Shown here piece after piece: positions 3,908-57,907 of a stretch of DNA of 64,000 nt (positions are counted from its first letter, which is position 1; every line of letters begins with the position of its first letter). The notes under the pieces were generated by a model. The model was not told the origin of the DNA and did no database searches. It saw nothing but the letters and a program-made list of their open reading frames with translations. The stretch is from a virus, in IMG/VR virus record IMGVR_UViG_3300042565_001021, positions 64,001-128,000 of that record. One strand, 5' to 3'. The translations under genes and the position numbers were made by a program.

Positions 3908-4168
3908 TCATTTGTAACCAAAGTCAACCGAATATATTTGCCGGTACGGAAACACCCTAACAGTGGTGCCGAGCTTTAACGCTAAAAATGTACCTAATGC
4001 TTCATCTTCGCAGTATAGGTCAATATTGGTTCCGGTGGAGCGAACCTCCCATCCTGCTCCTCCAATGGCAATATTTCTATTAGATGGCAACCAGTATCGT
4101 TGCTCGGAGATGTTGTCGTTACACCAGCTAACTACATTCTGAACCTTGTTACCTATTATTACGCCCAT
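3908..4168 (-). CDS. 'L(K/R)W'-family-like small protein (degenerate)
   Basis: VVSWCNDNI...GW...EDEALGTFLALKL; start uncertain. Confidence 0.55.
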   Translation of the reverse strand: MGVIIGNKVQNVVSWCNDNISEQRYWLPSNRNIAIGGAGWEVRSTGTNIDLYCEDEALGTFLALKLGTTVRVFPYRQIYSVDFGYK

Positions 4169-4467
4169 TTTAGTTTCAATAGCGTCATTACCTCTTCGGA
4201 AACGTCGTACCACACACCTTTCACTTGCCGAACAATGAAGTAATCTTTATCTTCTACAAATGTTGCTCGTATCCATGTTAGCACTTTAGCATCGGCGGTA
4301 ATTGAATACATAGTCACACCGTCGACTACTGCCGATTCTAATACTGAATACATTTTTAATACCCCATACATCGGTTGAACTCCGACAATCTCGGCCGCAA
4401 TTAGATTAGGTACTATTCTTCGTATAAACGGAATCAGTACTTTTTGAAATTCTGTATGGTCTATCAT
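4159..4467 (-). CDS. 'L(K/R)W'-family protein with N-terminal gp23 Gol-like peptide
   Basis: VLIPFIRRIVPNLIAAEIVGVQPM followed by domain ending LLKLKWA. Confidence 0.8.
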   Translation of the reverse strand: MIDHTEFQKVLIPFIRRIVPNLIAAEIVGVQPMYGVLKMYSVLESAVVDGVTMYSITADAKVLTWIRATFVEDKDYFIVRQVKGVWYDVSEEVMTLLKLKWA

Positions 4468-4778
4468 AACCATTTTAATCTGAACATGAGCAGGTCTGCC
4501 TCATTGCGAAGAAAGATTCGGCAGTTTTTCTCACTGTGAGATATTCTCCAACGGTGCCTGCTGTGGTTACCGTCTGTCCCAAAGGCTTCTTTACACCAGG
4601 CTATTGCGTCGTGCCATTGCCTTAAAGGTATGTCAATTGCCCACTCGCCGTGGTAAGCTTTTCTTATCCAAATAGCATCAACAAGATACATCGAATCCAT
4701 CCCGTGGAGTACTTCGACGGTCCAGGTCCCTATAAGTTTTCGTGGACTGGCCTTAATCTGTGTCGTTGTTATTTCCAT
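4464..4778 (-). CDS. 'L(K/R)W'-family protein with N-terminal gp23-like peptide
   Basis: EITTTQIKASPRKLIGTWTVEVLHGMD followed by WCKEAFG...RW...NEADLLMFRLKWL. Confidence 0.8.
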   Translation of the reverse strand: MEITTTQIKASPRKLIGTWTVEVLHGMDSMYLVDAIWIRKAYHGEWAIDIPLRQWHDAIAWCKEAFGTDGNHSRHRWRISHSEKNCRIFLRNEADLLMFRLKWL

Positions 4779-21265: not shown

Positions 21266-21332
21266 TAAAGCAATTATACAGCCTTTTAAAGAAAAGTCAA
21301 CCGGAATCTTAGGTTAAACCTAAGTCATTGAT

Positions 21333-22559
21333 TTAATAGCGTAATCCAGCCATTTCTTCTATGTATTCGCGGAGTTCTTTGTCGATGGCTGGCTTGGCAA
21401 TGATGTTCCAAATGCGATCTTGCACTTCGTATCTCAAATCCATCGAGTCATACAGCGTATCTTTTTCTGCTATGTCTTCGAAGTCCATGTTCATGCTGCC
21501 CAACCAATCGCCTATTATAAACTGTACGTCGGTATCATCTAAGTCCTCGCCTGCTAAGAACATGTCAGAATCTAGGCCGGCTATAATCGCATCGGTTAGT
21601 CCTTGCCCGTCTCGAAGAAGTGCGTTATGTACTAGCGTAGATAACTTTCGAGGAATATGACCGTTGGATTGTTTTGCTAACGTGCGATAAATCGCATCGC
21701 TTACTTTCAACACTAAGTTCCTGTTACTAACTGACCGTAAAATTGTCTCAGCCATACTATGTTTAAGGTTCTCGAAGTCTTCGGCGAATTCTTCGGCACC
21801 AACTACAAACTCAACTACGTTGTTTGCTAATGCCTCGTTCATAAACAGATCAACCACTTGCGGGAACCTTCGTAGTAACGGGTCTAACTTAATAGGTATG
21901 TCCTGTATGTCCATAAACTGTCTGGCGCGGAAATGGAACTGGTACTTTTCTCCAGGACTAACAGGTGCCTTAGGTAAAAGGATGTATAAGTTTCCTTCCT
22001 TGTTGTAACGCTCAAACATGTTATTATTCTTTGCTGCCGTACACCAAGTTGTACCTTGCCCGTAATACTTCGCTGCTTCTACGTTCAGTATATGCAGGAT
22101 CCGTAAAGTGTCGTCGTCGAGCACTACGTTTACTTGTCCTTTATCTACTACGACATCTTGCGGTTCAGGATAAGTAGCAACGGTTTGCTCAAAGTCTTGC
22201 ATTGACCTGAACCGGTTGATATCTCTGTGCTCTGGCTTGAGTTGCTGCTTAGTCTTTAGCTTGTGGAACCGCTCTAACGCAGATGCGCCGCGTGATTCAA
22301 AGTCTTCGTACTTAGTAACGACGCCAAGTTGAGCAGCATAGGTTTTACATAACCACTGGGTGTATTCTTTGTGCGGGGTTGGATCCATTTCCTCGAAACC
22401 CCCAAGCAACCAGTTTATGTCGATTTCCGTTTTATTTAATTCGTCTTGTTGATCGTAAATTGATCGATCCTTTTTAGCAACCGCGAGAAGCTTTTCACCA
22501 AAGTTTTGTGCTGTGGTTTGACGATTGTACTCTACCAGGAATTCTACTGCTCTTACCAT
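21333..22559 (-). CDS. putative capsid-internal protein, PcfJ-like region
   Basis: Leader MVRAVEFLVE; DPT..KEYTQW, RDIN, AAKYYGQGTTWCTAA, EKYQFH. Confidence 0.75.
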   Translation of the reverse strand: MVRAVEFLVEYNRQTTAQNFGEKLLAVAKKDRSIYDQQDELNKTEIDINWLLGGFEEMDPTPHKEYTQWLCKTYAAQLGVVTKYEDFESRGASALERFHKLKTKQQLKPEHRDINRFRSMQDFEQTVATYPEPQDVVVDKGQVNVVLDDDTLRILHILNVEAAKYYGQGTTWCTAAKNNNMFERYNKEGNLYILLPKAPVSPGEKYQFHFRARQFMDIQDIPIKLDPLLRRFPQVVDLFMNEALANNVVEFVVGAEEFAEDFENLKHSMAETILRSVSNRNLVLKVSDAIYRTLAKQSNGHIPRKLSTLVHNALLRDGQGLTDAIIAGLDSDMFLAGEDLDDTDVQFIIGDWLGSMNMDFEDIAEKDTLYDSMDLRYEVQDRIWNIIAKPAIDKELREYIEEMAGLRY

Positions 22560-22978
22560 CGCGCCGCTGCCTTTACAAGTTCTATACTTAGTGGTTCTAC
22601 GCTTACTATTTGATCGGGAGTTACCCAGCCTTTCTTCTTTAGCCATTTGCCTTCGTTGCTTGCTTGTGACAACGGATCTGAATCATCTACTTCCCACGTA
22701 TTTATATCGTCGTTAAACGATACGATAGAGACAATGCCCGAGCCCATCTTCTTAGCTAATTCCCATTCCCACTTTGCTGCCCAGCGTGTTGCGTCCTTCT
22801 TGGATGTCATAGCAAAGATCTCGCCAATGTTGCCATACTGGCCGCCTGCTGCTTTAACAAAATTAGTAGGGTTAGCACCAGTAATCCCTTTAGCTTGGAT
22901 TTTTGAAACTGTTACAGTTCTAGTAACGTGATACAAAGTTGCCCCGGTTGATTCAGTTATAAACTCTTTAGCTTTCAT
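22553..22978 (-). CDS. putative capsid-internal protein, ART/Tpt1-like
   Basis: Leader MKAKEFITE; TLYHVT....I...GI. Confidence 0.65.
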   Translation of the reverse strand: MKAKEFITESTGATLYHVTRTVTVSKIQAKGITGANPTNFVKAAGGQYGNIGEIFAMTSKKDATRWAAKWEWELAKKMGSGIVSIVSFNDDINTWEVDDSDPLSQASNEGKWLKKKGWVTPDQIVSVEPLSIELVKAAARW

Positions 22979-23829
22979 TACCATCCTCCCGGCGGCTCTG
23001 CAGGCAACCCTGCCCCTTTAAGGTCAGAAGCAGAAACTTTTGCTCCACCAGGTGGTGAAACCGGTTTTGGTTCTTTAACTCCGTTCTTCGAATCTACAAA
23101 TCGTTTCCATAAGCTCTTCTCTATTGCTATACACTTCCCACTAAACCATACCTCGTTTTTCATAGGGTGGTTTAAAGCAAAAGACTTGATAGTTTTAATT
23201 TGCATGCCTGTCCTGTCAGGAGCCATGCCTCTGTTTAAGACATCAATGAAATCCTCTGACCCAACTTTTCCGTTTGACAGATACCGTAACTCTTTTTCTA
23301 CTCTTGGCATCTTTACTGCTTTGACAAACTCAGCGTATGAAGTGTCGGGTAAGTACAGATAGTTTCTACACATGTCAGCGATGCCTTCAAACGTGGTGTG
23401 AATGTTAGGTTCAAACTCTGGCAAATGCGCCTTCACTTCCCATATGTCTTTCTCTGGACAAATGCCTATCCTTGTTCCGTTGAACGGAAATAAAGCATAT
23501 AAAGATCCACCAAATGCGTTAGCATACGTCCGATCACTTGTAGCAATTAAGCTCTTGCTACGCTTTGGCCAAAGTGCGTAATTAGGACTATTGTCCATCA
23601 ATAGCGTATAGTGATTAGAAGTGTTCTGTGACTTGCGCTCGCTGTTTGTTGTATCAATGAACACTAACGGTTCTTGGTGGTCTTTCATTGAACGCCAGAT
23701 CGGATTCTCTAACATAGGCAGAGCTTCTGTACAGTGAGCGTTCAGCAGCTCCATAGCCTTCTCTAGCTGAAGGTTCTCAGCCTGGTATGGGGTAACCGCG
23801 GCTTCAACAGTAAATTCTTTTGCTCTCAT
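22978..23829 (-). CDS. putative capsid-internal protein, possible ART fold
   Basis: Leader MRAKEFTVE; IWRS, RSKSLIATS, NEVW; paralogue of 29280..29972. Confidence 0.65.
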   Translation of the reverse strand: MRAKEFTVEAAVTPYQAENLQLEKAMELLNAHCTEALPMLENPIWRSMKDHQEPLVFIDTTNSERKSQNTSNHYTLLMDNSPNYALWPKRSKSLIATSDRTYANAFGGSLYALFPFNGTRIGICPEKDIWEVKAHLPEFEPNIHTTFEGIADMCRNYLYLPDTSYAEFVKAVKMPRVEKELRYLSNGKVGSEDFIDVLNRGMAPDRTGMQIKTIKSFALNHPMKNEVWFSGKCIAIEKSLWKRFVDSKNGVKEPKPVSPPGGAKVSASDLKGAGLPAEPPGGW

Positions 23830-23831
23830 GA

Positions 23832-24461
23832 TTACTCGAATGTCACCCAAGGATCGGCAGCTATTATAGTCCCGTCTGCTCTCATTAACCAATTCTCAGA
23901 ATGTAGGTCAAGAATGATTTCTGTTAGGTTATGCGCATCAGCATACACTTGCGCAGCTTTATAAAGAAATGTTGTTGCTTCTAATATTCCGCTTACGGTG
24001 TTTGCACCAGTAAGCTTACTGTCAAGTAATACCTGTTCTAATCTATTAGATTCGTAACCTAAACCGTGTCCTTCGCACTTGACTGAGTTGGCGACATCCC
24101 ATAATACATTTGCGAGATAGTCGTTGTTAAGAGGATACAATCGTTCAATTCTGATTTGTAACACTTCCTCTGCGTCTACGTCTATACCATGTATAACCGG
24201 AAAATGTTTACTTTTGTACCCGTGGTCTACACAGAAGTGCACAAATGCCAAAGATGCTTTATGAACTCCTTTATCGGAGCCACCGAACCCGCCGCCTACG
24301 ACTTTAACGACAGTATCAGGGTCAGAAAAATGATTCCACACTGTGGCTGTGTATCCTTTGCCAACTTGGTTCCATCCAGACTGCTTACGAATTTCATCGT
24401 TAACGAATCCTGGGTCAAGCTCGTTTAGCTGTTCGTTCTCGAATAGTTCAGTTAGAAACAT
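23832..24461 (-). CDS. putative capsid-internal protein kinase-like enzyme
   Basis: Leader MFLTELFE; GKGYTATVW, VVKV, DLHSENWL, ADP. Confidence 0.78.
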   Translation of the reverse strand: MFLTELFENEQLNELDPGFVNDEIRKQSGWNQVGKGYTATVWNHFSDPDTVVKVVGGGFGGSDKGVHKASLAFVHFCVDHGYKSKHFPVIHGIDVDAEEVLQIRIERLYPLNNDYLANVLWDVANSVKCEGHGLGYESNRLEQVLLDSKLTGANTVSGILEATTFLYKAAQVYADAHNLTEIILDLHSENWLMRADGTIIAADPWVTFE

Positions 24462-24468
24462 AATATTC

Positions 24469-25017
24469 TCATAATGTGAACAGTGGACCTTGGATAAACC
24501 AGGTCTCTGTCCTTTCTTTAATCATTCCGTTGCGTAAAGCTTCGATGACGTCGGGTGTAAAGTCTCGATTCCGCCAACCTGATATTATCAGATGTGTTTC
24601 GACCGGAGCGTTACCTTCGAGCTCTAACTGGGCATTCATTCGGTGTCTACCTTCGTGCCCAGTTACCCAAGCCGGGAGAATAAACTTTCCGTTCTCCCAT
24701 TCTTCGTCTACGCTTATGTATAGTGTTGGTGCGCCGAAGCTTCCTCCGGTTCGAGCATGATTTTTCATTTTTTCAATGCTGCTTCTTGCTGAGTCGTCAA
24801 CGGTCAAGTTGCTTGCTAAATTTAAGAACTTGCTTGGCTTCATCATCACCCGCAGGCCCATGTAATCGATTTCTTGGTTGTTAGGCGTCTGGCCCCAACC
24901 TGATTGGTTATCAATGTTTAGCTCAGTAATTCTTGTCAACTCTTCAGACAACACCTTATCGACTTCTTTCTGAAGAATATCAAATACCGTTTCGTTAATG
25001 AATTCTTGTGCTCTCAT
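24469..25017 (-). CDS. putative capsid-internal ParB/Srx-like protein
   Basis: Leader MRAQEFINE; MKPSKFL, P.L, GHEGRHR. Confidence 0.7.
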   Translation of the reverse strand: MRAQEFINETVFDILQKEVDKVLSEELTRITELNIDNQSGWGQTPNNQEIDYMGLRVMMKPSKFLNLASNLTVDDSARSSIEKMKNHARTGGSFGAPTLYISVDEEWENGKFILPAWVTGHEGRHRMNAQLELEGNAPVETHLIISGWRNRDFTPDVIEALRNGMIKERTETWFIQGPLFTL

Positions 25018-25868
25018 TAGTCGTTCGCTCCTGGCGCCCACATATCTCCGTTAGGCTTAAAGCTAGTGCTGTTGCTGTTCGATCCGCTCTTATCAATTCC
25101 TGGGCGGGCTCCCCTCTCGTCGCTAGAGACGACCTTGTCACCGCTAACATCGCTGCTCCGTTCGTCTCGTTCGTCTGAGTAAAAATATCCTTGCTCGTCA
25201 CTGAATACCTGATCTGCTTCGGAATACCACGGGTCAGCAGCTATGATAGTTCCGTTTGGCCTCATTAACCAGTTGCCGCCGTGCAAATCTATCCAGCCTT
25301 CGTTTATATTGTGAGCTTCCAAATAAACTGGTAAGGCCTTGCTCAAATACTTAATAGCTTCGACTATCTCGTCGACGTTATTGTTCTCTTTCATGCCCTG
25401 TATTCCTGAATACTTCATTGCTGACAGCAATTCGATTTTCGATTTAGTTAATGCTGCGCCGCCGGTAACAGCATTAGCTAATCTGCTTAGACCGCTCCTT
25501 ACGTCACCGCTACTAATAGGAAGCAACTTCTCCATTCTGATCTGTAATACTTCGGCGTCGTCTATGTTTATTCCGTGAACGATAGGATAGTGCTTACTCG
25601 TGTGTCCGTGATCAACTAGAAAGTGAATAAACGCTAAAGTAATATTTCGATAGCCACCTTGCGCTTCGTAGTCTCCACCACCGACTACTTTAACTACGGT
25701 GTCTGGTTCTTGATAGTGTTGCCAAACTGACGCAGTAGCACCTTGTCCTAGCTTATCCCAGGCTCGTAAGTTTTTAAACTTACCTTGTGATTGCTGCTTG
25801 ATAACCTGGTTAACATAATCCGGGGCAAGTTCGGTTAGTTCAGTGTCAAATAATTCAGTTAGGAACAT
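25017..25868 (-). CDS. putative capsid-internal protein kinase-like enzyme
   Basis: Leader MFLTELFD; LGQGATASVW, VVKV, DLHGGNWL, ADP; TAAATA just upstream. Confidence 0.78.
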   Translation of the reverse strand: MFLTELFDTELTELAPDYVNQVIKQQSQGKFKNLRAWDKLGQGATASVWQHYQEPDTVVKVVGGGDYEAQGGYRNITLAFIHFLVDHGHTSKHYPIVHGINIDDAEVLQIRMEKLLPISSGDVRSGLSRLANAVTGGAALTKSKIELLSAMKYSGIQGMKENNNVDEIVEAIKYLSKALPVYLEAHNINEGWIDLHGGNWLMRPNGTIIAADPWYSEADQVFSDEQGYFYSDERDERSSDVSGDKVVSSDERGARPGIDKSGSNSNSTSFKPNGDMWAPGAND

Positions 25869-25877
25869 AGTTAGTAT

Positions 25878-26822
25878 TTACCTGTCGAACAATGCTGCGA
25901 TTTCTGCGGATTTCTTAGCTAACATCTCTTTAGTGTACTTTGCCTTCTCTATTGCCGCAGGGGTTTCTGCTTTGGCGAACTTACTGCTATTTATCGCTGT
26001 GTTGATTTTACCTAAGTAGATTTCTTTTACTCTCGGAATAAGTTCTTCTTTGCCTACGCTCTGTAAGATGCCTTTAATACTGTCGATCATATCGGCTACG
26101 CGGACTTCTCCGCCTACTAACCCGGGATACTGCTTAACTAACGGAGATGGTGTTCCTCCGAAAAACTTAACTATGTCAAGTGCCCAGGTCTTTGGGTTGT
26201 TAGTGACTGTCTTTAGGTCAACATCCTTAACTGTGCGGAACGGGACGAATGTGCCATTTTGGAATTTTGCTTGAACTCCGTGGCCGCCGCCGATGCTCAG
26301 ATTGAGGACTTCACCGAGCGACGAGTAAAGTGAGTTTGCTAACACACCTTTCATGTTCCACTCTGGCCGTAGTGCGTTAGTCCAGTCTTTATTCTCGTAG
26401 TAAGATGTGATTAGGTCGATCTGAACATAATCGTTTCCTATCTTTAGGATAACATTAACGCCGTTGTCTGAAGAAAAAGCAGAGGTTGAATCGCAAAACT
26501 CTTTAATAGCGTCGTTGTAGATCTTAAGGTTTGCGTTATTTGTGGTTCCTTCAATGCGTGGGATATGGAACTGGACATCAACGTCGCCATACTCTTTGTC
26601 TGGCTGTTGAACTAAGTCCCGTTCGTAGTATGTTGCGCTGCCACCCGGTGCCGATATCTCTGTTGGTCCTAATCCTTTTGTCTTTAGGAAGTTGTTCAAG
26701 GCGGGAATAAACTGAGTAGTTAATACCTTCATACATTGCTGAACGAGCCGTGGGGTAATAACTGTGTTTTGTGTTAGTGTCGATGCCCATCCACCTTCTA
26801 AAATAATTTCGTTAATTTTCAT
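25878..26822 (-). CDS. putative capsid-internal pol-beta-type nucleotidyltransferase
   Basis: Leader MKINEIILE; GGS...YGDVDV...VQIDLI. Confidence 0.7.
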   Translation of the reverse strand: MKINEIILEGGWASTLTQNTVITPRLVQQCMKVLTTQFIPALNNFLKTKGLGPTEISAPGGSATYYERDLVQQPDKEYGDVDVQFHIPRIEGTTNNANLKIYNDAIKEFCDSTSAFSSDNGVNVILKIGNDYVQIDLITSYYENKDWTNALRPEWNMKGVLANSLYSSLGEVLNLSIGGGHGVQAKFQNGTFVPFRTVKDVDLKTVTNNPKTWALDIVKFFGGTPSPLVKQYPGLVGGEVRVADMIDSIKGILQSVGKEELIPRVKEIYLGKINTAINSSKFAKAETPAAIEKAKYTKEMLAKKSAEIAALFDR

Positions 26823-27604
26823 AATATGTTCTTATCCCCAATAAACCAGGTTGTATTCATAAGATTTTCACTCATTTCCTTATTAGTTTTTAGATGTCGA
26901 GTCATCTTACTTTCAATGAATATTTCGCTTGGTCCTGCTTTTTCATATGCTGCTTCATTCCATTCTTTTTCTAAAGAGTTGATATCCGGGAAATCACCGG
27001 TTTGATCAGTTAATGTTAATCCTCTACCTTTAGCTAAGATAAGTTTCTTAAGCCATGTAAATCCTTCAGGAGTTAACCCTTCATTTTTTGAGATTTGTAT
27101 TTTTACTACAGCTTTAAGACGATGTGTTACGCAGCCAATTAATGCAGTAACATAACCGGGACCATTAACAAAGTTCCTAATTCCTTTTAACTCATTTCCT
27201 TTTAGTATTACTAGTGCATCAATACTGTCATCACCAATGAACGAGTAGACATCTTGATCATTTATATTACAGTGATATACATCTTTACCATCTAAACTAT
27301 TTACAATTTGAGATTTAGTAATTATTTGATTTTTCATATCTTGAGTTATATCTAATGCAGAATGGGCGTAGTCAATTTCAGTTAACCCTTCTTCGTTTGT
27401 CATCAACTTTTTAACACGCGGCTTGAATAGCTGGACATCTCCCTTATCGGTCTTTAACACTGGCTGATTGTGCTTATCCTTCTTAAAGCCTTTGATCTCG
27501 GCAGGGCTGTTCTTAAATTTACCCTTCATTACAACATCCCCGGTTTCCAATTCCGGAGGTTGGTAGGTTTCTGCACCTTCTACAATAAACTCGTTTGCTC
27601 TCAT
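26819..27604 (-). CDS. putative capsid-internal two-domain protein
   Basis: Leader MRANEFIVE; GKFKN small domain, internal LTE, GNAT-like remainder. Confidence 0.65.
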   Translation of the reverse strand: MRANEFIVEGAETYQPPELETGDVVMKGKFKNSPAEIKGFKKDKHNQPVLKTDKGDVQLFKPRVKKLMTNEEGLTEIDYAHSALDITQDMKNQIITKSQIVNSLDGKDVYHCNINDQDVYSFIGDDSIDALVILKGNELKGIRNFVNGPGYVTALIGCVTHRLKAVVKIQISKNEGLTPEGFTWLKKLILAKGRGLTLTDQTGDFPDINSLEKEWNEAAYEKAGPSEIFIESKMTRHLKTNKEMSENLMNTTWFIGDKNIL

Positions 27605-28011
27605 TCTTTGTTGCCACCTTTATATAGATCAGCAATACCTTTGCCAAAGTCATTTCCGTTGTATATACGCATAGACGATGGGATAATATCGTTGCCTAAC
27701 TCTTTAGCAAAGACATACATCTCTTTCGCAATACCTTGTCGGCGATACTCTGGCTTTACTTCGACGAATACTGCTTCTAAGTTGTTGTCTGTCACTTTGT
27801 ATGTTACGTTGCCTACTTTGTTGCCTTTAGCAGTGAAGGCGTCAATGTGAAAGTTTTCGCTTGTATTAATCTTCTTAGTTGGCGAATACGGTAGCGGGCC
27901 GTGGTATGCTTTAAGCATATACTTGCCGCCGAGTATCTCTTTCGTCTTTTCAAACCCGCGGCGGAATACTTGCGGGTTGATGCTGTCAGTTATGAACTCA
28001 GATGATTTCAT
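27601..28011 (-). CDS. putative capsid-internal GNAT acetyltransferase
   Basis: Leader MKSSEFITD; VEVKPEYRRQGIAKEMY. Confidence 0.78.
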   Translation of the reverse strand: MKSSEFITDSINPQVFRRGFEKTKEILGGKYMLKAYHGPLPYSPTKKINTSENFHIDAFTAKGNKVGNVTYKVTDNNLEAVFVEVKPEYRRQGIAKEMYVFAKELGNDIIPSSMRIYNGNDFGKGIADLYKGGNKE

Positions 28012-28448
28012 TGCACTCCTTTAATTACTAATCGCCAATCACTAAATTTTAATCGCAACACAGTTAAGAACTGATCTTTATCTGACTCAGTCTGAAATAG
28101 TAAAGTGTTACTAAGCTTATCCCCACTAACTCGCTCACCGTCCGGAAATCGATATATCTGTCCTAAGTATTCAAAATAAAACATGTCAGTTTGATGATCT
28201 TGTAATACTACTGGACCAGAAAAGTGTTTCACTGATAATAATTTACCAAGAGGAATAACAAGAAAACTAACTGGAGAAACCTTTGCCCCGATCTGCGGTG
28301 TAACTTGTTGCTGTTGAGCCAAGAAACTTTGAAGAATCTTAAAATCATCATTATCCTCAAATAACTCAGGACGATCTAATAGCATAATACGGACATCCTC
28401 GTATTGCTCATCTAACACATCAATATAAGAGAACTCAGAGGATTTCAT
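28008..28448 (-). CDS. putative capsid-internal protein
   Basis: Leader MKSSEF. Confidence 0.6.
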   Translation of the reverse strand: MKSSEFSYIDVLDEQYEDVRIMLLDRPELFEDNDDFKILQSFLAQQQQVTPQIGAKVSPVSFLVIPLGKLLSVKHFSGPVVLQDHQTDMFYFEYLGQIYRFPDGERVSGDKLSNTLLFQTESDKDQFLTVLRLKFSDWRLVIKGVQ

Positions 28449-28870
28449 ATTTGCTGTAACACCGGAATTGATGTTAACCCTAATTCAATAGCTCGTTGCA
28501 CACGGTGATTTCCGTCTATTATAAAACCATCTTTAGCTAATACCGGTGGAGTTTGAGTTAAACTTTGATAAGTAACATTTCTGGCGCGAGCCTGGTCCAT
28601 TTTAAATGGATCAGAGTTAATAATATCCGTCCCTGCTTCTTGATCGCTAAACGTTCTATATCGAGATGCTTCGTCAGAACTAATATTTGTTAATTTATAT
28701 TTGTGCTTAGAGATATACGTCCTATCACCTGCACCCAAATACATGTGCTCATCTAAATAATCTGCTACTACACTTCCGCGCACTATGTCACCAGGTTTGC
28801 CCCAAGCAAAGCCAACAACTCGCTTAATAAAGTCGATCAACCCCTCAGTTATGAATTCTGTCGACTTCAT
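28445..28870 (-). CDS. putative capsid-internal ParB/Srx-like protein
   Basis: Leader MKSTEFITE; PPVL....IIDGNHRV..A..LG...IPV. Confidence 0.75.
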   Translation of the reverse strand: MKSTEFITEGLIDFIKRVVGFAWGKPGDIVRGSVVADYLDEHMYLGAGDRTYISKHKYKLTNISSDEASRYRTFSDQEAGTDIINSDPFKMDQARARNVTYQSLTQTPPVLAKDGFIIDGNHRVQRAIELGLTSIPVLQQI

Positions 28871-29280
28871 TATCTCTTCCGTGTGCAAGCAGGGTGTGAA
28901 CCGTCACTCAATGATTTGCGGATTGCTTCGGAGTAGCGTGTCCATTTCGTTAGCTCTGCGTCGCTCAGTTCCATAAAGCGATTGTCCATCTCTACCCAGG
29001 CTTTTTCAATATCCGTTAATGGTTTGTTATACTGGTATTCGTGCTCGCGGATCTTATCTTCAGCGTTGATTGCTGCTGCGCGATGCTGTACAATACACTT
29101 CTTCGCTGCTTCGCTTGCTGCACCAGAATCAAAACGGTTCTTACCTTCAAAGCGTCCAATCTCTTTGCCATCAGCAGTAGCTACGAAGGTGTTCGTTAAA
29201 TCACCATCCTCGTCTTGGAGGCGGGTAATCTCATACTTTACCTTGCGAGCATCTTCTTTTAGGAATTCTTTGCTTAACAT
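28870..29280 (-). CDS. putative capsid-internal protein
   Basis: Leader MLSKEFLKE. Confidence 0.6.
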   Translation of the reverse strand: MLSKEFLKEDARKVKYEITRLQDEDGDLTNTFVATADGKEIGRFEGKNRFDSGAASEAAKKCIVQHRAAAINAEDKIREHEYQYNKPLTDIEKAWVEMDNRFMELSDAELTKWTRYSEAIRKSLSDGSHPACTRKR

Positions 29281-29972
29281 TAAACGGTTTCTCCCCAGGC
29301 AGTCATTAAGTTAACCACCATGCTGTCATTGTTTGGTCCATACAAAGGGAGTAAATAAAAAGACTCAGCGTGTAGCATAACTTCGTTTTTACTTCTGACT
29401 GCTTCTTTAACTGCGCCGACTTGATAGTCCCCGTCATCAAGCATCCATTTAATGGCCCCTATTAGGTTACGGTTGTTAGTATCTCCAACCCAATAACTCT
29501 TGCTAAATCCCGCTGCGGCAACTACCTCGCTAGGATAATGGTTAAACAAGAACATGTCGAGATGCTCAGTAAGGTCAGATATCTCGGGCGACCAACAAGC
29601 AGTAAATTCTCCTCTTGGAATGACTAATAAAGGATTGCCGTAGTCTCTAGCCATACCTTGAGATCCGGTCGCAAACAAAGCATTACTTCTGAACTTTATG
29701 CCAGTCGTTTCCTCGAAATATGCGTCGGCAATCTGATGAATAGCAAGGGGAGTATCTTTTGGCTTTCTGTTGACCGGGCACATGAGCACAGTGACTTGGT
29801 CAACACCCCTTCTTCCGTGATATAAGTCGTGCCTGTATAAGTCAAAGTCGATGGACTTTAGGTAAGGTTGACACTCGCTTTTTAGTACCTCAGCAAAACG
29901 GCGGAATTCCGGGGAGATAACAATTTCTTTCCCGGCTACAGTTACTTCAGTTATAAATTCAGAGCTTTTCAC
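29280..29972 (-). CDS. putative capsid-internal protein, possible ART fold
   Basis: Leader MKSSEFITE; LYHG, RSNALFATG, NEVM. Confidence 0.65.
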   Translation of the reverse strand: MKSSEFITEVTVAGKEIVISPEFRRFAEVLKSECQPYLKSIDFDLYRHDLYHGRRGVDQVTVLMCPVNRKPKDTPLAIHQIADAYFEETTGIKFRSNALFATGSQGMARDYGNPLLVIPRGEFTACWSPEISDLTEHLDMFLFNHYPSEVVAAAGFSKSYWVGDTNNRNLIGAIKWMLDDGDYQVGAVKEAVRSKNEVMLHAESFYLLPLYGPNNDSMVVNLMTAWGETV

Positions 29973-30004
29973 TACTCGACATCCTTGGACATCGAGTATT
30001 TATC
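29973..30004 (-). promoter_or_regulatory. late promoter overlapping an RBS-enclosing hairpin
   Basis: TAAATA; TACTCGA...TCGAGTA inverted repeat around AAGGA, just before GTG. Confidence 0.6.
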
Positions 30005-30007
30005 TGT

Positions 30008-30595
30008 TTAGCGTCGAGTAATGATTTCGTCCACTAAGCCAAAGTCCAGGGCTTCTTGTGCGGACATGAAATTATCACGCTCCATGGCAGCAGCAAATTC
30101 GTCAAACGTCTTGCCTTTGCTATTGTGATCAACGTAGATCTGCGTAAGAACCTTCTTCATTTTGAGGATTTCTTCGACCTGAATAAGCATGTCCGTTGCT
30201 TGACCACGTGCACCACCGCTAGGTTGGTGAATCATGTGTCGTGCATACGGGAGGATCATGCGCTTACCTTTCGCGCCTGCTTGAGCAAGCAACGAACCCA
30301 TGCTACAGGCCTGACCCATTACGATAGTGCGAACGTCACACTTTACGAATTGCATGGTATCGTAGATGGCCATACCTGCCGTTACGATGCCGCCCGGGGA
30401 GTTGATGTAAAAGATAATCTCTTTGTCTGCATCTTCTGCTTCAAGGAACAACATTTGCGCTACGACTACGCTAGACGACACCTCGTTTACGTCATCGTGA
30501 AGCATAACGATACGGTCTTTAAGCAAGCGACTGTAGATATCGTAGCTACGTTCGCCTTTAGCGGTTTGCTCGACTACCATTGGAATAAGGGACAC
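30008..30595 (-). CDS. clpP: ATP-dependent Clp protease proteolytic subunit
   Basis: [35 protein letters not shown]. Confidence 0.95.
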
Positions 30596-30662: not shown

Positions 30663-30748
30663 ATAAATAAAAGTGCAGTTCGCGATGTTGAAGCATCCAA
30701 CTGCCCTAGACTAACCAGGAGGCTATATGTCCAGCAATAATACTTATT
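30663..30748 (+). promoter_or_regulatory. late promoter plus conserved structured leader (copy 2)
   Basis: TAAATA; GCAGTT-CGC-GATG/CATC-C-AACTGC; AGGAGG. Confidence 0.75.
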
Positions 30749-31275
30749 ACGTTTACGCATATCTGCGCAATAAAGACTCAAAAACTGCTAAAGCAGGAAC
30801 ACCTTATTATATTGGCAAAGGATCAGGACGACGCGCCTGGGTAACCCATAAACATAAGACCCCGGTGCCGAAAGATAAAACGTTTATTGTTCTACTTGAA
30901 CAGAATTTAACTGAAGTCGGAGCATTAGCCTTAGAGAGGAGAATGATTGCTTGGCATGGAAGAAAAGATTTAGGAACAGGCATTCTATTAAATAGAACAG
31001 ACGGAGGAGACGGTTGTAGCGGAGTTATTATGTCTGAATTAACTAAAGAAAAACGTAATGCTGCGCAAAGAGGAAAGAAGTTGTCAGAAGAACATAAGAG
31101 AAAAATATCTGTCGGTTCAAAATCAAGACCGCCTATATCCGAAGAAACGAGAGAAAAATTTAGGCTACGAAACAAAAACCGGGCGCCGATGACAGCTGAA
31201 GAGAGGGTAAAATTATCAATTGCAGTAACGCAGTCATGGGCAAGAAGAAAATTACTTAAATCTTCTGCCGCTTAA
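30727..31275 (+). CDS. GIY-YIG homing endonuclease with NUMOD3-like repeats
   Basis: YYVYAYLR...PYYIGKG, LLNRTDGGDG, LSEEHKRKIS. Confidence 0.85.
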   Translation: MSSNNTYYVYAYLRNKDSKTAKAGTPYYIGKGSGRRAWVTHKHKTPVPKDKTFIVLLEQNLTEVGALALERRMIAWHGRKDLGTGILLNRTDGGDGCSGVIMSELTKEKRNAAQRGKKLSEEHKRKISVGSKSRPPISEETREKFRLRNKNRAPMTAEERVKLSIAVTQSWARRKLLKSSAA

Positions 31276-31720
31276 TCCATTTGATTTCATCATATGTTGT
31301 TTTCAACGGAATACCAAAGCTTGCTAATTTCTTTCGAAATATGAAAAACGAAGGACCATGACTTAAGAGCGGAGCCCTACCTGAAGTTATTCTATCGGCG
31401 CCAAGGACCGACCATTGGTATTGATGGCACATTTCATGCGCTAGGATCATTATCATCCATTGAATACAGAAGAACCTGTAATTTAGCTTTATCTTCGTGT
31501 AATGCTTCGGCTCAGAAAAGCCTATACACATTCCCCACACGTTTAGGTTGCGTAGGTTGATGCTTGGGTGTTTTAACTTACCGTCGAATATATGGGTATT
31601 TAATAGATCGTATGCTTGGTGCACATCTTCTATTTTAGGCTGATACTTCTTCTTCCGCTGATAACGCTTACTAGGCAACGGAATCTTCATTAGTTCGATA
31701 AGGGAAGTAGAAGGAAGCAC
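31256..31720 (-). CDS. SprT-like zinc metalloprotease
   Basis: LNTHIFDGKL..P, LAHEMCHQYQ, SHGPSF. Confidence 0.8.
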   Translation of the reverse strand: MLPSTSLIELMKIPLPSKRYQRKKKYQPKIEDVHQAYDLLNTHIFDGKLKHPSINLRNLNVWGMCIGFSEPKHYTKIKLNYRFFCIQWMIMILAHEMCHQYQWSVLGADRITSGRAPLLSHGPSFFIFRKKLASFGIPLKTTYDEIKWIKRQKI

Positions 31721-46453: not shown

Positions 46454-47041
46454 TTATATCTCTTCAAACAAGGTCTCAGCATACCAAACCCACCCTTGGC
46501 CACGATTATTTACATCTTCTGAAAAGTAATTCTTACCTGGACCCAACTTAGTTGATTCGAACATGTAACATAAGTCTGGATCATTGATCGGCTCTACTAG
46601 CTTGGTCTTTTCTCCAGTTATCTTATTCAATACAGACGGAGTAGCCATTCCATATTTTCCTAACGAATTGATTAACTCTTGCCCTCCGGCGAAAATAGCT
46701 CCATCTGCTATAACTGGATCCTTAGCAAATTCTTTAACTGCGTAGAGTAACCATTTAATCGCTGAAGTTTTTCTAAAGGTTGGAACTATGTAAATTAGAT
46801 CAATATGAGAATAAATGTTGCCTAGTAGCCTGTCTCGACTAATCTTAACAAACCCTATTAACAATGCCTGATCTTTTTTAAGAATCAAGTATTTGTCTTT
46901 TTCCCAAAGCGATAATGTTTCTGAGACCTCAGTTATTTTTACAGCATCGTCTATCTCGGCATTGATGAACTGATGATCTACTTTATCATCTGGAAATTCC
47001 CCGAACTGCGTTGCTTCGGGCGTAAACTCATTCGACTTCAT
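46454..47041 (-). CDS. putative capsid-internal GNAT-like protein
   Basis: Leader MKSNEFTPE; IDLIYIVPTFRK. Confidence 0.65.
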   Translation of the reverse strand: MKSNEFTPEATQFGEFPDDKVDHQFINAEIDDAVKITEVSETLSLWEKDKYLILKKDQALLIGFVKISRDRLLGNIYSHIDLIYIVPTFRKTSAIKWLLYAVKEFAKDPVIADGAIFAGGQELINSLGKYGMATPSVLNKITGEKTKLVEPINDPDLCYMFESTKLGPGKNYFSEDVNNRGQGWVWYAETLFEEI

Positions 47042-55955: not shown

Positions 55956-56729
55956 ATGCGAGCAAACGAATTCATCATTGAAGGTCCTGTAGCACCAGTT
56001 TCCCAGGACAAAGAACAAATATTTAAACAGGTCTGGAATCACGAATTTGAAGAGCCAGGCAACCTGTGGGACGATCACGGCTACGATCGCCCTGAGGATA
56101 TAGAAAACCCATTTACGATAGACAATAAGCTTAGGCACGTCGGTACTGGTGCCGAAGCGGCAGTAGTTCGCTACGACGACGCAAACTCAGTATTTAAAAT
56201 CATTGGTACTTATCAACAGCTTGGGCAAAATGCTCATCTCCAGTACCTGTTAGCAACTAAAAAGTATGCTGGGTCAAATCCTTACCTCCCAAGAATCCTA
56301 AGCTTTAACGAAGTCCCGCAGATTTCAGGTAAGAACAAAAGCGTAAAAGGGTATGCTGTCAGGATGGAACGTTTATTTCCTTTTGACACCTCTTACAAAG
56401 GTGCGGCTACTCCAGAAATGGAGATTATGCTACAGAAAATATTCGGACCCGACTTTGTATCATACATGGAAAACACTAACCATTTTACCCGATACATCAA
56501 ATACGCCATTAACGGAAAATTAGCTTACTTAGTAATTGATCCGCAGTTCAAACAAGCAGCAGAACTTATTATCGCAGTAGCAAAGCAGATGGATTCGCAA
56601 TACGATGTTGATACTCTAATAGACTTACACATCGGAAACATAATGATTCGCCCGACTAAGTTTGGACCACAGCTTGTATTGTCTGATCCGTTATATAACG
56701 GCGGCGAACACCTAAGAACATCATCATGA
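55956..56729 (+). CDS. putative capsid-internal protein kinase-like enzyme
   Basis: TAAATA upstream; leader MRANEFIIE; VGTGAEAAV, VFK, NPYLPRI, DLHIGNIM, SDP. Confidence 0.78.
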   Translation: MRANEFIIEGPVAPVSQDKEQIFKQVWNHEFEEPGNLWDDHGYDRPEDIENPFTIDNKLRHVGTGAEAAVVRYDDANSVFKIIGTYQQLGQNAHLQYLLATKKYAGSNPYLPRILSFNEVPQISGKNKSVKGYAVRMERLFPFDTSYKGAATPEMEIMLQKIFGPDFVSYMENTNHFTRYIKYAINGKLAYLVIDPQFKQAAELIIAVAKQMDSQYDVDTLIDLHIGNIMIRPTKFGPQLVLSDPLYNGGEHLRTSS

Positions 56730-57907
56730 ATCTAAATCAAATCAGACCACAATTTGTTATCGTGATAGGAGGCGCGGGATCAGGCAAAAATTACTTTATT
56801 TCAAATGATCCTACCTACTCAAAGTTTTTACTCGTTGATGTAGATGCTATAAAAGGCGAGCTCGGTGTTGGCCCAGCTATTTCCGCAATTAAGCCAATGC
56901 TCGAAAAAGCCTTTGCCGAAAAGAAGAACGTAGCTCACCCAACAACTGGCACGAACCTAAAGGCACAGCAGAACAAGTTAGCTCTCGCACAAAGGAACGG
57001 ATACTCAACGACCATAGTATTAGTTGATACTCCAATTGACCAAGCAATAGCGCAAGTGCGGAAACGCTACAGAGAAGGCGGACACGACGTCGCGCTTGAC
57101 AAGATTGTTAGTTCAAACAAGTTAGCCCGAGAGAACTTCGAAGCTCTTAAAGGGTTAGCTGATAACGCAATTGTAACAGGTAACGAGACTAACGAAGCTG
57201 CTCTTCCGTATGCTGACCCGGCAGAGCAGGCCAAATACCAACGGGTGTGGCATGCCGACCGAATTTCGGACCCAGCTGATTTTTCATCCTCTTACTACAA
57301 TAAATCTAATCCGTTTCTGACTCCGGCGCACAGAAAGATTCACGACGACGGATACGAGCTACTAGGGTCGGGGGTAGAAGCAGTAGTTGTTCGCAAACCA
57401 GGTGACAACTCGGTTGTTAAGATATTCGGAACGGAGAAAGCAATTAGAGACTGCGCAGCTATGCAATACCTTTTACTGAGCCGAAAATACTCTAACGTTA
57501 ATCCTTACTTCCCTAAGATAACTTCAGTTCAACAAGTCAAAGCACCTGCAGCAGGTAACATAATGTTCGCTATTCATATGGAACATCTGACAGAGTCAAT
57601 GAGTGCAAACGGGTTTGATATAGAGGTAATTTTTAAAACAATCTTTACAGACCAATACTTAGAGCGATTTACAGGCGTTGCTTCTAAGGGTATCGCAACT
57701 CAATTAGCGTATGCTGTTAGTTCAGCTGTAGACGGGACCATACATCCTACTAAAATAAAAGACCGGAATTTCCTTAATGCTGCTGCGCTAATCAACAAAG
57801 TTTATAGAAAGAGTGACGCCGGAATCGACTTACACAGTGGTAACATTATGATTCGTTACTCTGACGTTGGTCCGCAGTTGGTAATTACCGATCCAGTAAT
57901 TGATTAG
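56726..57907 (+). CDS. zeta-toxin-like P-loop kinase fused to protein kinase-like domain
   Basis: GGAGSGKN, R...GGH.V; then LGSGVEAVV, VVK, NPYFPKI, DLHSGNIM, TDP. Confidence 0.75.
   Translation: MNLNQIRPQFVIVIGGAGSGKNYFISNDPTYSKFLLVDVDAIKGELGVGPAISAIKPMLEKAFAEKKNVAHPTTGTNLKAQQNKLALAQRNGYSTTIVLVDTPIDQAIAQVRKRYREGGHDVALDKIVSSNKLARENFEALKGLADNAIVTGNETNEAALPYADPAEQAKYQRVWHADRISDPADFSSSYYNKSNPFLTPAHRKIHDDGYELLGSGVEAVVVRKPGDNSVVKIFGTEKAIRDCAAMQYLLLSRKYSNVNPYFPKITSVQQVKAPAAGNIMFAIHMEHLTESMSANGFDIEVIFKTIFTDQYLERFTGVASKGIATQLAYAVSSAVDGTIHPTKIKDRNFLNAAALINKVYRKSDAGIDLHSGNIMIRYSDVGPQLVITDPVID

Follow-up and report, generated by a model that had tools for sequence, protein, structure and literature searches.

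A thirteen-gene array with a shared T4-like leader, a probable capsid-targeting tag, in an uncultured T4-related jumbo phage

A 64,000-nucleotide stretch of viral DNA (the window, bases 64001-128000 of a single IMG/VR viral record of 155,045 bp, referred to as the contig) carries at positions 21333-29972 thirteen successive minus-strand genes, the stop and start codons of which overlap or abut. Their products begin with a common short leader, which probably functions as a capsid-targeting propeptide of the type known from bacteriophage T4. The first-pass annotation had listed thirteen consecutive open reading frames (ORFs) with these N-termini, and all of them are present and start exactly as listed. 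For six of the thirteen, a start at the leader shortens the longest ORF by 2-29 codons, and this start is preferred since it touches or overlaps the stop codon upstream. The array genes, the elements at both ends of the array and two solitary leader genes of the window are as follows (aa, amino acids).

29997-30003, minus strand: ATAAATA late-promoter-like motif, heading the array just past the ClpP stop codon
29280-29972, minus strand: array gene 1, 230 aa, MKSSEFITE, GTG start; weakly predicted ADP-ribosyltransferase-like fold, PHROG 11975 family
28870-29280, minus strand: array gene 2, 136 aa, MLSKEFLKE; cargo without signal
28445-28870, minus strand: array gene 3, 141 aa, MKSTEFITE; weak ParB/Srx-like signal (DGNHR)
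28008-28448, minus strand: array gene 4, 146 aa, MKSSEFSYID, cleavage position degenerate; cargo without signal
27601-28011, minus strand: array gene 5, 136 aa, MKSSEFITD (Asp for Glu); weak GNAT acetyltransferase signal
26819-27604, minus strand: array gene 6, 261 aa, MRANEFIVE; cargo without signal
25878-26822, minus strand: array gene 7, 314 aa, MKINEIILE; DUF6267-like or Pol-beta nucleotidyltransferase-like cargo
25017-25868, minus strand: array gene 8, 283 aa, MFLTELFD (Alt-like subtype); protein-kinase-like cargo
24469-25017, minus strand: array gene 9, 182 aa, MRAQEFINE; cargo without signal, GHEGRHR motif present
23832-24461, minus strand: array gene 10, 209 aa, MFLTELFE; protein-kinase-like cargo
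22978-23829, minus strand: array gene 11, 283 aa, MRAKEFTVE; PHROG 12810, weak signal of PHROG 11975 (the gene 1 family)
22553-22978, minus strand: array gene 12, 141 aa, MKAKEFITE; cargo without signal
21333-22559, minus strand: array gene 13, 408 aa from MVRAVEFLVE, longest ORF to 22646; cargo without signal
21273-21324, minus strand: array end, a 7-bp hairpin (21308-21324) followed by a sigma-70-like promoter, TTGACT-16-TATAAT (21300-21273)
46454-47041, minus strand: solitary leader gene, 195 aa, MKSNEFTPE; weak GNAT signal
55956-56729, plus strand: solitary leader gene, 257 aa, MRANEFIIE, preceded by ATAAATA; kinase-like, related to genes 8 and 10

Ten of the array leaders follow the pattern M-[KR]-x-x-E-[FI]-[ILT]-x-[ED], two read MFLTELF[DE], and that of gene 4 is degenerate past the Phe. 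The contig holds 22 firm leader genes, namely the thirteen of the array, the two solitary ones in the window and seven outside the window that are mostly paired, and two more that are marginal. The leader had also been noted earlier at 47041, 55956 and 62047; the first two occurrences are confirmed, and the third (MKIDEIE) is marginal only. The description of the genes as otherwise unrelated holds, since BLASTP links a single pair within the array once the first 12 residues are stripped (gene 8 at 25017-25868 and gene 10 at 23832-24461, paralogues with 46% identity), and three related pairs are detectable among the 22 leader proteins treated in the same way.

The leader is tied to the start of the protein. 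The motif [ED][FIL][ILVFT]x[EDN] begins at residue 5 in 12 of the 255 longest ORFs of the contig and at residues 1-4 and 7-10 in none, with a background rate of 0.0017 per residue. A strict degenerate DNA pattern of the leader matches the 155-kb contig ten times and a reversed control not at all, its estimated chance frequency being about 1 in 11 Mb per strand. A position matrix gave 19 matches at start codons versus 4 at approximately 198,000 other six-frame positions, although the leaders themselves had served to train the matrix, which makes the test partly circular. The first-pass annotation had proposed that a motif equally frequent in other genes would speak against its reading; instead, the motif is enriched and occurs almost exclusively at start codons. 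A hydrophobic-x-E/D/N triplet occupies residues 7-9 or 8-10 in 20 of the 22 leaders, the exceptions being gene 4 (MKSSEFSYID) and gene 8 (MFLTELFDT), and genes 8 and 10 display an Alt-like L-T-E at residues 3-5. From gene to gene the leaders use different codons at synonymous sites, and the similarity of the leader DNA (62-81% over 27-39 nt) stops at the start codon, with nothing conserved upstream; both features indicate that what is selected is the leader peptide. On the same grounds, an explanation by a conserved cassette or upstream element at the DNA level was ruled out.

The contig is approximately 44% complete, corresponding to a genome of about 350 kb. In family-B DNA polymerase it shares 48% identity with Sinorhizobium phage Phosso, 45% with Agrobacterium phage Atu_ph07, 42% with the Rak2/121Q group and 63-75% with many uncultured IMG/VR contigs, identities that place the source among the T4-related jumbo phages as an uncultured member. 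Searches against isolated phages found no match, either by megablast of the array or by tblastn of array gene 7. Five large IMG/VR relatives were compared: G001 (178 kb), which is the closest (75% polymerase identity), G002 (300 kb), G003, G004 (76% complete) and G005, a complete genome of 352,754 bp with terminal repeats.

The likeness to T4 concerns several of its propeptides. The IPIII tag quoted in the first-pass annotation, MKTYQEFIAE, is confirmed from the T4 record NC_000866, where IPII is identical. In the same record IPI reads MKTFKEFTS, with ITE at residues 17-19, Alt (MELITELFDE) and its duplicate alt.-1 start MELITELFD, and the N-termini of gp24, gp22 and gp67 are MAKINELLRE, MLKEQLIAE and MEGLIEAI, respectively. 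The leader subtypes of the array mirror these sequences, MKxxEFIxE resembling IPII and IPIII, MFLTELF[DE] resembling Alt and MKINEIILE resembling gp24, and the F-I-x-E of the window leader aligns with F7-I8-x-E10 of IPIII. The first 10 residues of IPIII are enough for head targeting; residues 4 and 7 serve targeting and residues 8 and 10 processing, and an Asp at position 10 stops cleavage but not targeting (PMC9026906). By analogy with this T4 Asp-10 variant, the gene 5 product (ITD) and the gene 4 product (SYID) may enter the head and keep their leaders.

The T4 internal proteins (IPs) have in common with the array an N-terminal tag of approximately 10 residues, consisting of Met and a basic residue followed by E/Q-F-I-x-E, borne by unrelated small proteins and ending in hydrophobic-x-Glu, the cleavage motif of the gp21-family protease. 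Reviews of these proteins already propose the tag as an evolutionary device to load varied proteins into the head. In this phage, by contrast, the tag is one residue shorter, and the three IPs plus Alt of T4 compare with at least 22 tagged genes in 155 kb, thirteen of them in one operon-like array. The T4 IPs are also small and basic, whereas the cargoes described here, as read from their genes, are 136-408 aa long, mostly acidic and in several cases enzyme-like. Alt itself is a head-packaged enzyme, loaded by an N-terminal propeptide and delivered with the DNA, and its start (MELITELFDE) recalls the MFLTELF[DE] of two array genes. It is an ADP-ribosyltransferase, and the predicted fold of array gene 1 is ADP-ribosyltransferase-like. 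However, no sequence homology to Alt was found outside the leader, the cargoes that follow MFLTELF are kinase-like, and the ADP-ribosyltransferase-like cargo carries an IP-type leader. Head-internal ejection proteins are targeted by N-terminal propeptides also in phiKZ-like giant phages such as SPN3US, where a gp21-related protease cuts after x-x-Glu (PMC5694885). SPN3US differs in that its propeptides are mostly longer than 100 residues, its cleavage motif is S/A-x-E and it belongs to a separate group of jumbo phages.

The head machinery with which a T4-type tag would interact is encoded in the lineage. One S77 protease gene and one gp23-type capsid gene are present in four of the five large relatives, the exception being the 76%-complete G004, and a Peptidase S77 protease is found in Atu_ph07 as well. 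The head genes of G005 and G001 stand in the T4 order of portal, small protein, acidic protein, protease, scaffold and capsid (portal-67-68-21-22-23), so both gene set and order are those of T4. In G001 the N-terminus is MFVTELLTE for the small protein at the gp67 position and MRANKFEQLVE for the acidic one at the gp68 position, and LLE motifs occur close to the N-terminus of the capsid protein; the protein at the gp67 position of Atu_ph07 starts MKLTELF. Positional equivalents of the scaffolding core with leader-like N-termini are found in G001, G005 and Atu_ph07. Judged by the core-protein starts of G001 and Atu_ph07, the array leaders share their N-terminal words with what are bona fide prohead-core components of the lineage.

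The strict leader pattern occurs 2, 8, 3, 1 and 7 times in G001 to G005, respectively, and 10 times in the 155 kb of this contig; a looser scan finds 7-8 leader genes in G005 versus at least 22 here. From these counts, the tag appears to be lineage-wide and the set of this phage unusually large. Atu_ph07, phAPEC6 and Phosso show no expansion of the strict pattern, with 1-2 matches each, and the genes annotated at these matches in Atu_ph07 and Phosso encode hypothetical proteins. Homologues of gene 7 (34-48% identity by tblastn and alignment) occur on five other IMG/VR contigs, with M1, K2, I3, I6 and E9 invariant alongside G61-S62 and D80xD82, and their neighbours also bear leaders. The array cargoes are hardly shared with G001 or G005, as is expected if they are accessory genes with a fast turnover, which the pattern fits. 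Literature searches found no account of such tagged-gene arrays.

For gene 1, a word-index search had given three relatives only, and an exhaustive HMMER search was used instead; it returned 3,060 database cluster representatives at E <= 0.001. Among 143 non-redundant representatives shorter than 330 aa, drawn from the 149 best-scoring matches, 83% have K or R at residue 2, 58% have E at residue 5 and 87% have I, F, L, V or Y at residue 6; some homologues show the exact T4 wording, for example xFKQFLxE. The gene 1 domain itself is only 25-40% identical among homologues. These families bear on the possibility that the shared N-terminus is a functionless remnant of the serial duplication of a single ancestral gene, an idea suggested by the tandem arrangement of the genes and by the three paralogue pairs among the 22 leader genes. 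Such a remnant seems barely credible, because no other part of these proteins is as well conserved as the leader, the rest having diverged past the point of recognition, it is retained across some 3,000 representatives of the gene 1 family, and distant homologues of gene 7 keep M1, K2, I3, I6 and E9.

The only experimental evidence comes from a relative, in the form of virion detection in Atu_ph07. A tblastn search with gene 1 located seven copies in this phage, within a tandem array of 11 genes (MF403008.1, 39484-50592) that corresponds to gp53-gp63 and whose products start M[RK]WxQL[TN]E or MRLFQLLE; since the leader is worded differently, the array was found through gene 1 homology only. 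All 11 proteins appear in the purified-virion table obtained by electrospray ionization tandem mass spectrometry (Supplementary Table S5), with 3-31 unique peptides and 12-47% coverage (Attai et al., 2018, PMC6102473). The masses computed for the 11 coding sequences agree with the gp53-gp63 entries of Table S5 to within 0.01 kDa. The authors flagged a cluster of unexplained virion proteins (CDS 31-76) and read them as novel structural proteins, and the consulted sections of the paper, together with its supplement, mention neither a shared leader nor tag-based packaging (PMC6102473). Both arrays are tandem, lie in T4-related jumbo phages and encode a shared N-terminus, which in Atu_ph07 ends in L-x-E; homology to array gene 1 extends to seven places, and every one of the 11 proteins was detected in virions. 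They differ in the wording of the leader (M[RK]WxQL[TN]E) and in content, the Atu_ph07 array being largely paralogous and the cargoes of the present one mostly unrelated.

The array also resembles a discrete late transcription unit. An ATAAATA motif lies 25 nt upstream of the first GTG start, in agreement with the late promoter that the first-pass annotation had placed at the head of the block. The T4 late promoter is TATAAATA, and the ATAAATA motif resembles it. ATAAATA is present in 39 copies on the main coding strand of the contig versus about 14 expected, usually 6-37 nt before a start codon; in G005 motifs of the TAAATA type, several of them full ATAAATA, precede the head-operon start, the portal gene and the core genes, and in G001 ATAAATA precedes the head-operon start. 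Taken together, ATAAATA at the head and the hairpin and sigma-70-like promoter at the end make the array look like a discrete late unit in silico. Late synthesis, which is expected of capsid-targeting proteins, is in this way predicted by the motif at gene 1 and before the head genes of relatives. The near-consensus sigma-70 promoter directly behind gene 13 is the point at which a late-type unit gives way to one of the host-RNA-polymerase type.

Many array genes are coupled in translation and have no clear Shine-Dalgarno sequence. This feature would be compatible with a leader that has no part in packaging and serves instead as a translation-initiation or regulatory element or, given that the array is immediately preceded by a bona fide ClpP gene and that the contig also encodes a ClpA-like ATPase, as a recognition tag for the adjacent phage ClpAP. 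Either role is very improbable. An RNA element is at odds with leader DNA that is not conserved at synonymous sites, and a degron is at odds with a tag that resembles known gp21 substrates and no degron that can be named. In G005 the leader genes occupy 54-74 kb and 263 kb, well away from the closest ClpP homologue (77% identical) at 0.2-0.8 kb, and a second ClpP match (28% identical) maps to 349 kb; this lack of adjacency is the reason for which a functional link to ClpP was rejected. Finally, leader-bearing homologues are present in Atu_ph07 virions, which agrees with the capsid-targeting reading and not with either of these signals.

The cargoes had been described as mostly modifying enzymes, which is plausible; weak signals were obtained for about seven of the thirteen array genes, and none of them exceeds a curated cut-off. 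Pfam and PHROG profile searches gave no enzyme-like signal for genes 2, 4, 6, 9, 12 and 13. The AlphaFold2 (AF2) model of gene 1 has a predicted local distance difference test score (pLDDT) of 89.8, and among its top 20 fold matches the full-domain ones are mostly of the ADP-ribosyltransferase superfamily (Arr, diphtheria toxin, PARPs, DarT, cholix), though weak (Z 3-5.8, Foldseek E-values of 0.03 or worse). Gene 1 has no Pfam match; its family has invariant residues at R69, R95 and E197 and a conserved Y-R-G in the consensus, and the modelled structure points weakly to an ADP-ribosyltransferase-like fold. In metagenomic proteins elsewhere the gene 1 domain occurs as a C-terminal module, including in a giant protein of 2,645 aa, and in others it is fused to a Zeta-toxin-type kinase or a NUDIX hydrolase. 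Gene 11 matches PHROG 12810 and, weakly, PHROG 11975, the gene 1 family; its single-sequence AF2 model reaches a pLDDT of 38.

The remaining signals are of similar weight. Gene 3 matches PHROG 620 at E 6.5e-4, a faint ParB/Srx-like match that gains no support from solved structures in a PDB sequence search. Gene 5 matches Pfam GNAT families at E 7e-5 to 4e-3, all under their cut-offs (the best 23.4 bits versus 30; Acetyltransf_1 19.8 versus 20.7), and has weak acetyltransferase rows in the PDB sequence search, while the solitary gene 46454-47041 reaches 19.3 versus 20.7 for Acetyltransf_1; for both, the GNAT assignment is a lead only. Gene 7 has nucleotidyltransferase motifs of the Pol-beta type, and an Atlas structure search gave template modelling (TM) scores of 0.83 to DUF6267 clusters and 0.45-0.56 to the Pol X palm; DUF6267 is absent from T4, Atu_ph07 and phAPEC6. 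The three paralogues formed by gene 8, gene 10 and 55956-56729 share an invariant K60, D194-L-H-x-x-N199 and D212, along with a DP motif, and the kinase-like cargoes match PHROG 15752 (the T7 gp0.7-type kinase) below threshold at E 2e-5 to 4e-4, with gene 10 at 4e-4. PDB sequence searches gave nothing usable for the kinase-like and nucleotidyltransferase-like profiles or for genes 3 and 5.

The tag could target the prohead and the tagged proteins could nevertheless be structural or assembly components (extra core, inner-body or DNA-organising proteins for a head of very large size) rather than effectors for the next host. The prohead-core proteins of relatives start with the same N-terminal words, six of the thirteen cargoes are without any enzyme-like signal, and the authors of the Atu_ph07 study took the array proteins as novel structural proteins in the part of that work considered here (PMC6102473). 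Even so, such a role is unlikely, since the cargo set is not conserved even at 63-75% polymerase identity, which fits accessory genes, several cargoes contain invariant motifs that look catalytic, and the gene 1 domain is joined elsewhere to NUDIX and Zeta-toxin-type kinase domains.

The shared N-terminus is therefore best read as a T4-type capsid-targeting propeptide that would bring about packaging, an interpretation that is probable though not secure. It is suggested by the likeness to T4 propeptides, by the gp21-family protease and the T4-ordered head genes of the lineage, by the occurrence of the same words on prohead-core proteins of relatives, by the retention of the leader across the gene 1 family, by the late-promoter-like motif at the head of the array and by the presence of all Atu_ph07 array proteins in the virion proteome. 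The array would then be a modular set of packaged proteins, each composed of tag and cargo. It would be transcribed late from the ATAAATA promoter; the first 8-10 residues (basic residue 2, Glu 5, hydrophobic 6-7 and Glu 9) would bind the prohead scaffolding core, and the tagged protein would thereby be enclosed in the assembling prohead. The gp21-family protease (Peptidase S77) would then cut after hydrophobic-x-Glu and free the mature cargo inside the head, and the cargo would exit with the DNA at the next infection. The first-pass annotation had proposed a T4-like capsid-targeting leader on injected effectors; every in-silico test favours the targeting, while core binding, cleavage, ejection into the host and cargo action there are steps that we infer. 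To speak of an injected anti-defence arsenal is a reasonable extension by analogy, in which the anti-defence role is purely conjectural.

Several observations weigh against capsid targeting. The phage is uncultured and packaging is read here from the genes alone. Neither the Peptidase_S77 (gp21) prohead protease nor scaffold and capsid genes are found on the 44%-complete contig, and where cleavage is expected the leaders of genes 4 and 5 have no Glu. Most cargoes here are acidic, unlike the T4 internal proteins, which the literature describes as basic (PMC9026906). Upstream of T4 ipII, ipIII and ipI there is no late-promoter box for 60 nt, and exclusively late expression is therefore no rule of the family. 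In Atu_ph07 the leader is worded differently, and its equivalence to the window leader is drawn by analogy. The Atu_ph07 virion list comprises 131 of 714 proteins and, in the material considered, includes likely contaminants (SSB, RecA-like protein and ribonucleotide reductase; PMC6102473), so detection there is no proof of specific packaging.

The proposal is of a known T4 mechanism, greatly expanded, and not of a new one. Three aspects appear undescribed, and literature searches returned nothing on them: how many genes are tagged (13 in one array and at least 22 in all, although the contig covers less than half of the genome), the enzyme-like and mostly non-paralogous nature of the cargo, and the connection to the Atu_ph07 array detected by proteomics. 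Somewhat short of probable is the wider proposition that throughout the T4-related jumbo phages a short N-terminal tag delimits the entire packaged and injected proteome, enlarged in this phage to two dozen or more interchangeable enzyme cargoes. Such a set would be to a phage what an effector repertoire is to a secretion system, and for uncultured phages it could be catalogued from sequence alone. If the tag does mark packaged proteins, the genomes of uncultured giant phages would directly reveal which proteins they inject, giving a focused list of candidate host-takeover and anti-defence enzymes. The T4 capsid-targeting principle would extend from a few small basic proteins to large, fast-changing enzyme arrays in a widespread environmental lineage. 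The function-unknown cluster of virion proteins gp53-gp63 of Atu_ph07 would be accounted for, and natural tag variants would become available for loading foreign proteins into large phage heads.

Further observations concern the surroundings of the array and the head genes. The gene directly upstream of the array (30008-30595, minus strand) encodes a genuine ClpP (PF00574, 251 bits), and contig positions 32124-34418 (minus strand) encode a ClpA/ClpB-like double-AAA ATPase with a Clp_N domain; the two could form a complete ClpAP-type protease, as predicted from their domains. G005 has both genes, and its ClpP is not beside leader genes. By eye, a GIY-YIG-type homing-endonuclease-like gene (30727-31275, plus strand) lies antisense between ClpP and the next minus-strand gene, 31256-31720, whose ORF translation has an HExxH motif typical of SprT-like metallopeptidases. 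Directly downstream of the solitary leader gene 55956-56729, a 393-aa protein without a leader of its own (56726-57907, plus strand) combines an N-terminal AAA_33/Zeta-toxin-like P-loop kinase domain with a C-terminal match to the T7 gp0.7-type protein-kinase PHROG. The sole contig match to the Gp23 Pfam model is a stand-alone 104-aa gene (4159-4473, minus strand), in which residues 8-37 align with the beginning of the model at 32.5 bits, over the cut-off; no array gene matches the model at E <= 1. This capsid-protein fragment is free-standing and remote from any head genes on the contig. In G001 several homing-endonuclease-like genes are inserted within the head-gene cluster (57,500-66,700), namely in the gap between the portal and small core-protein genes, upstream of the portal gene and beside the capsid gene.

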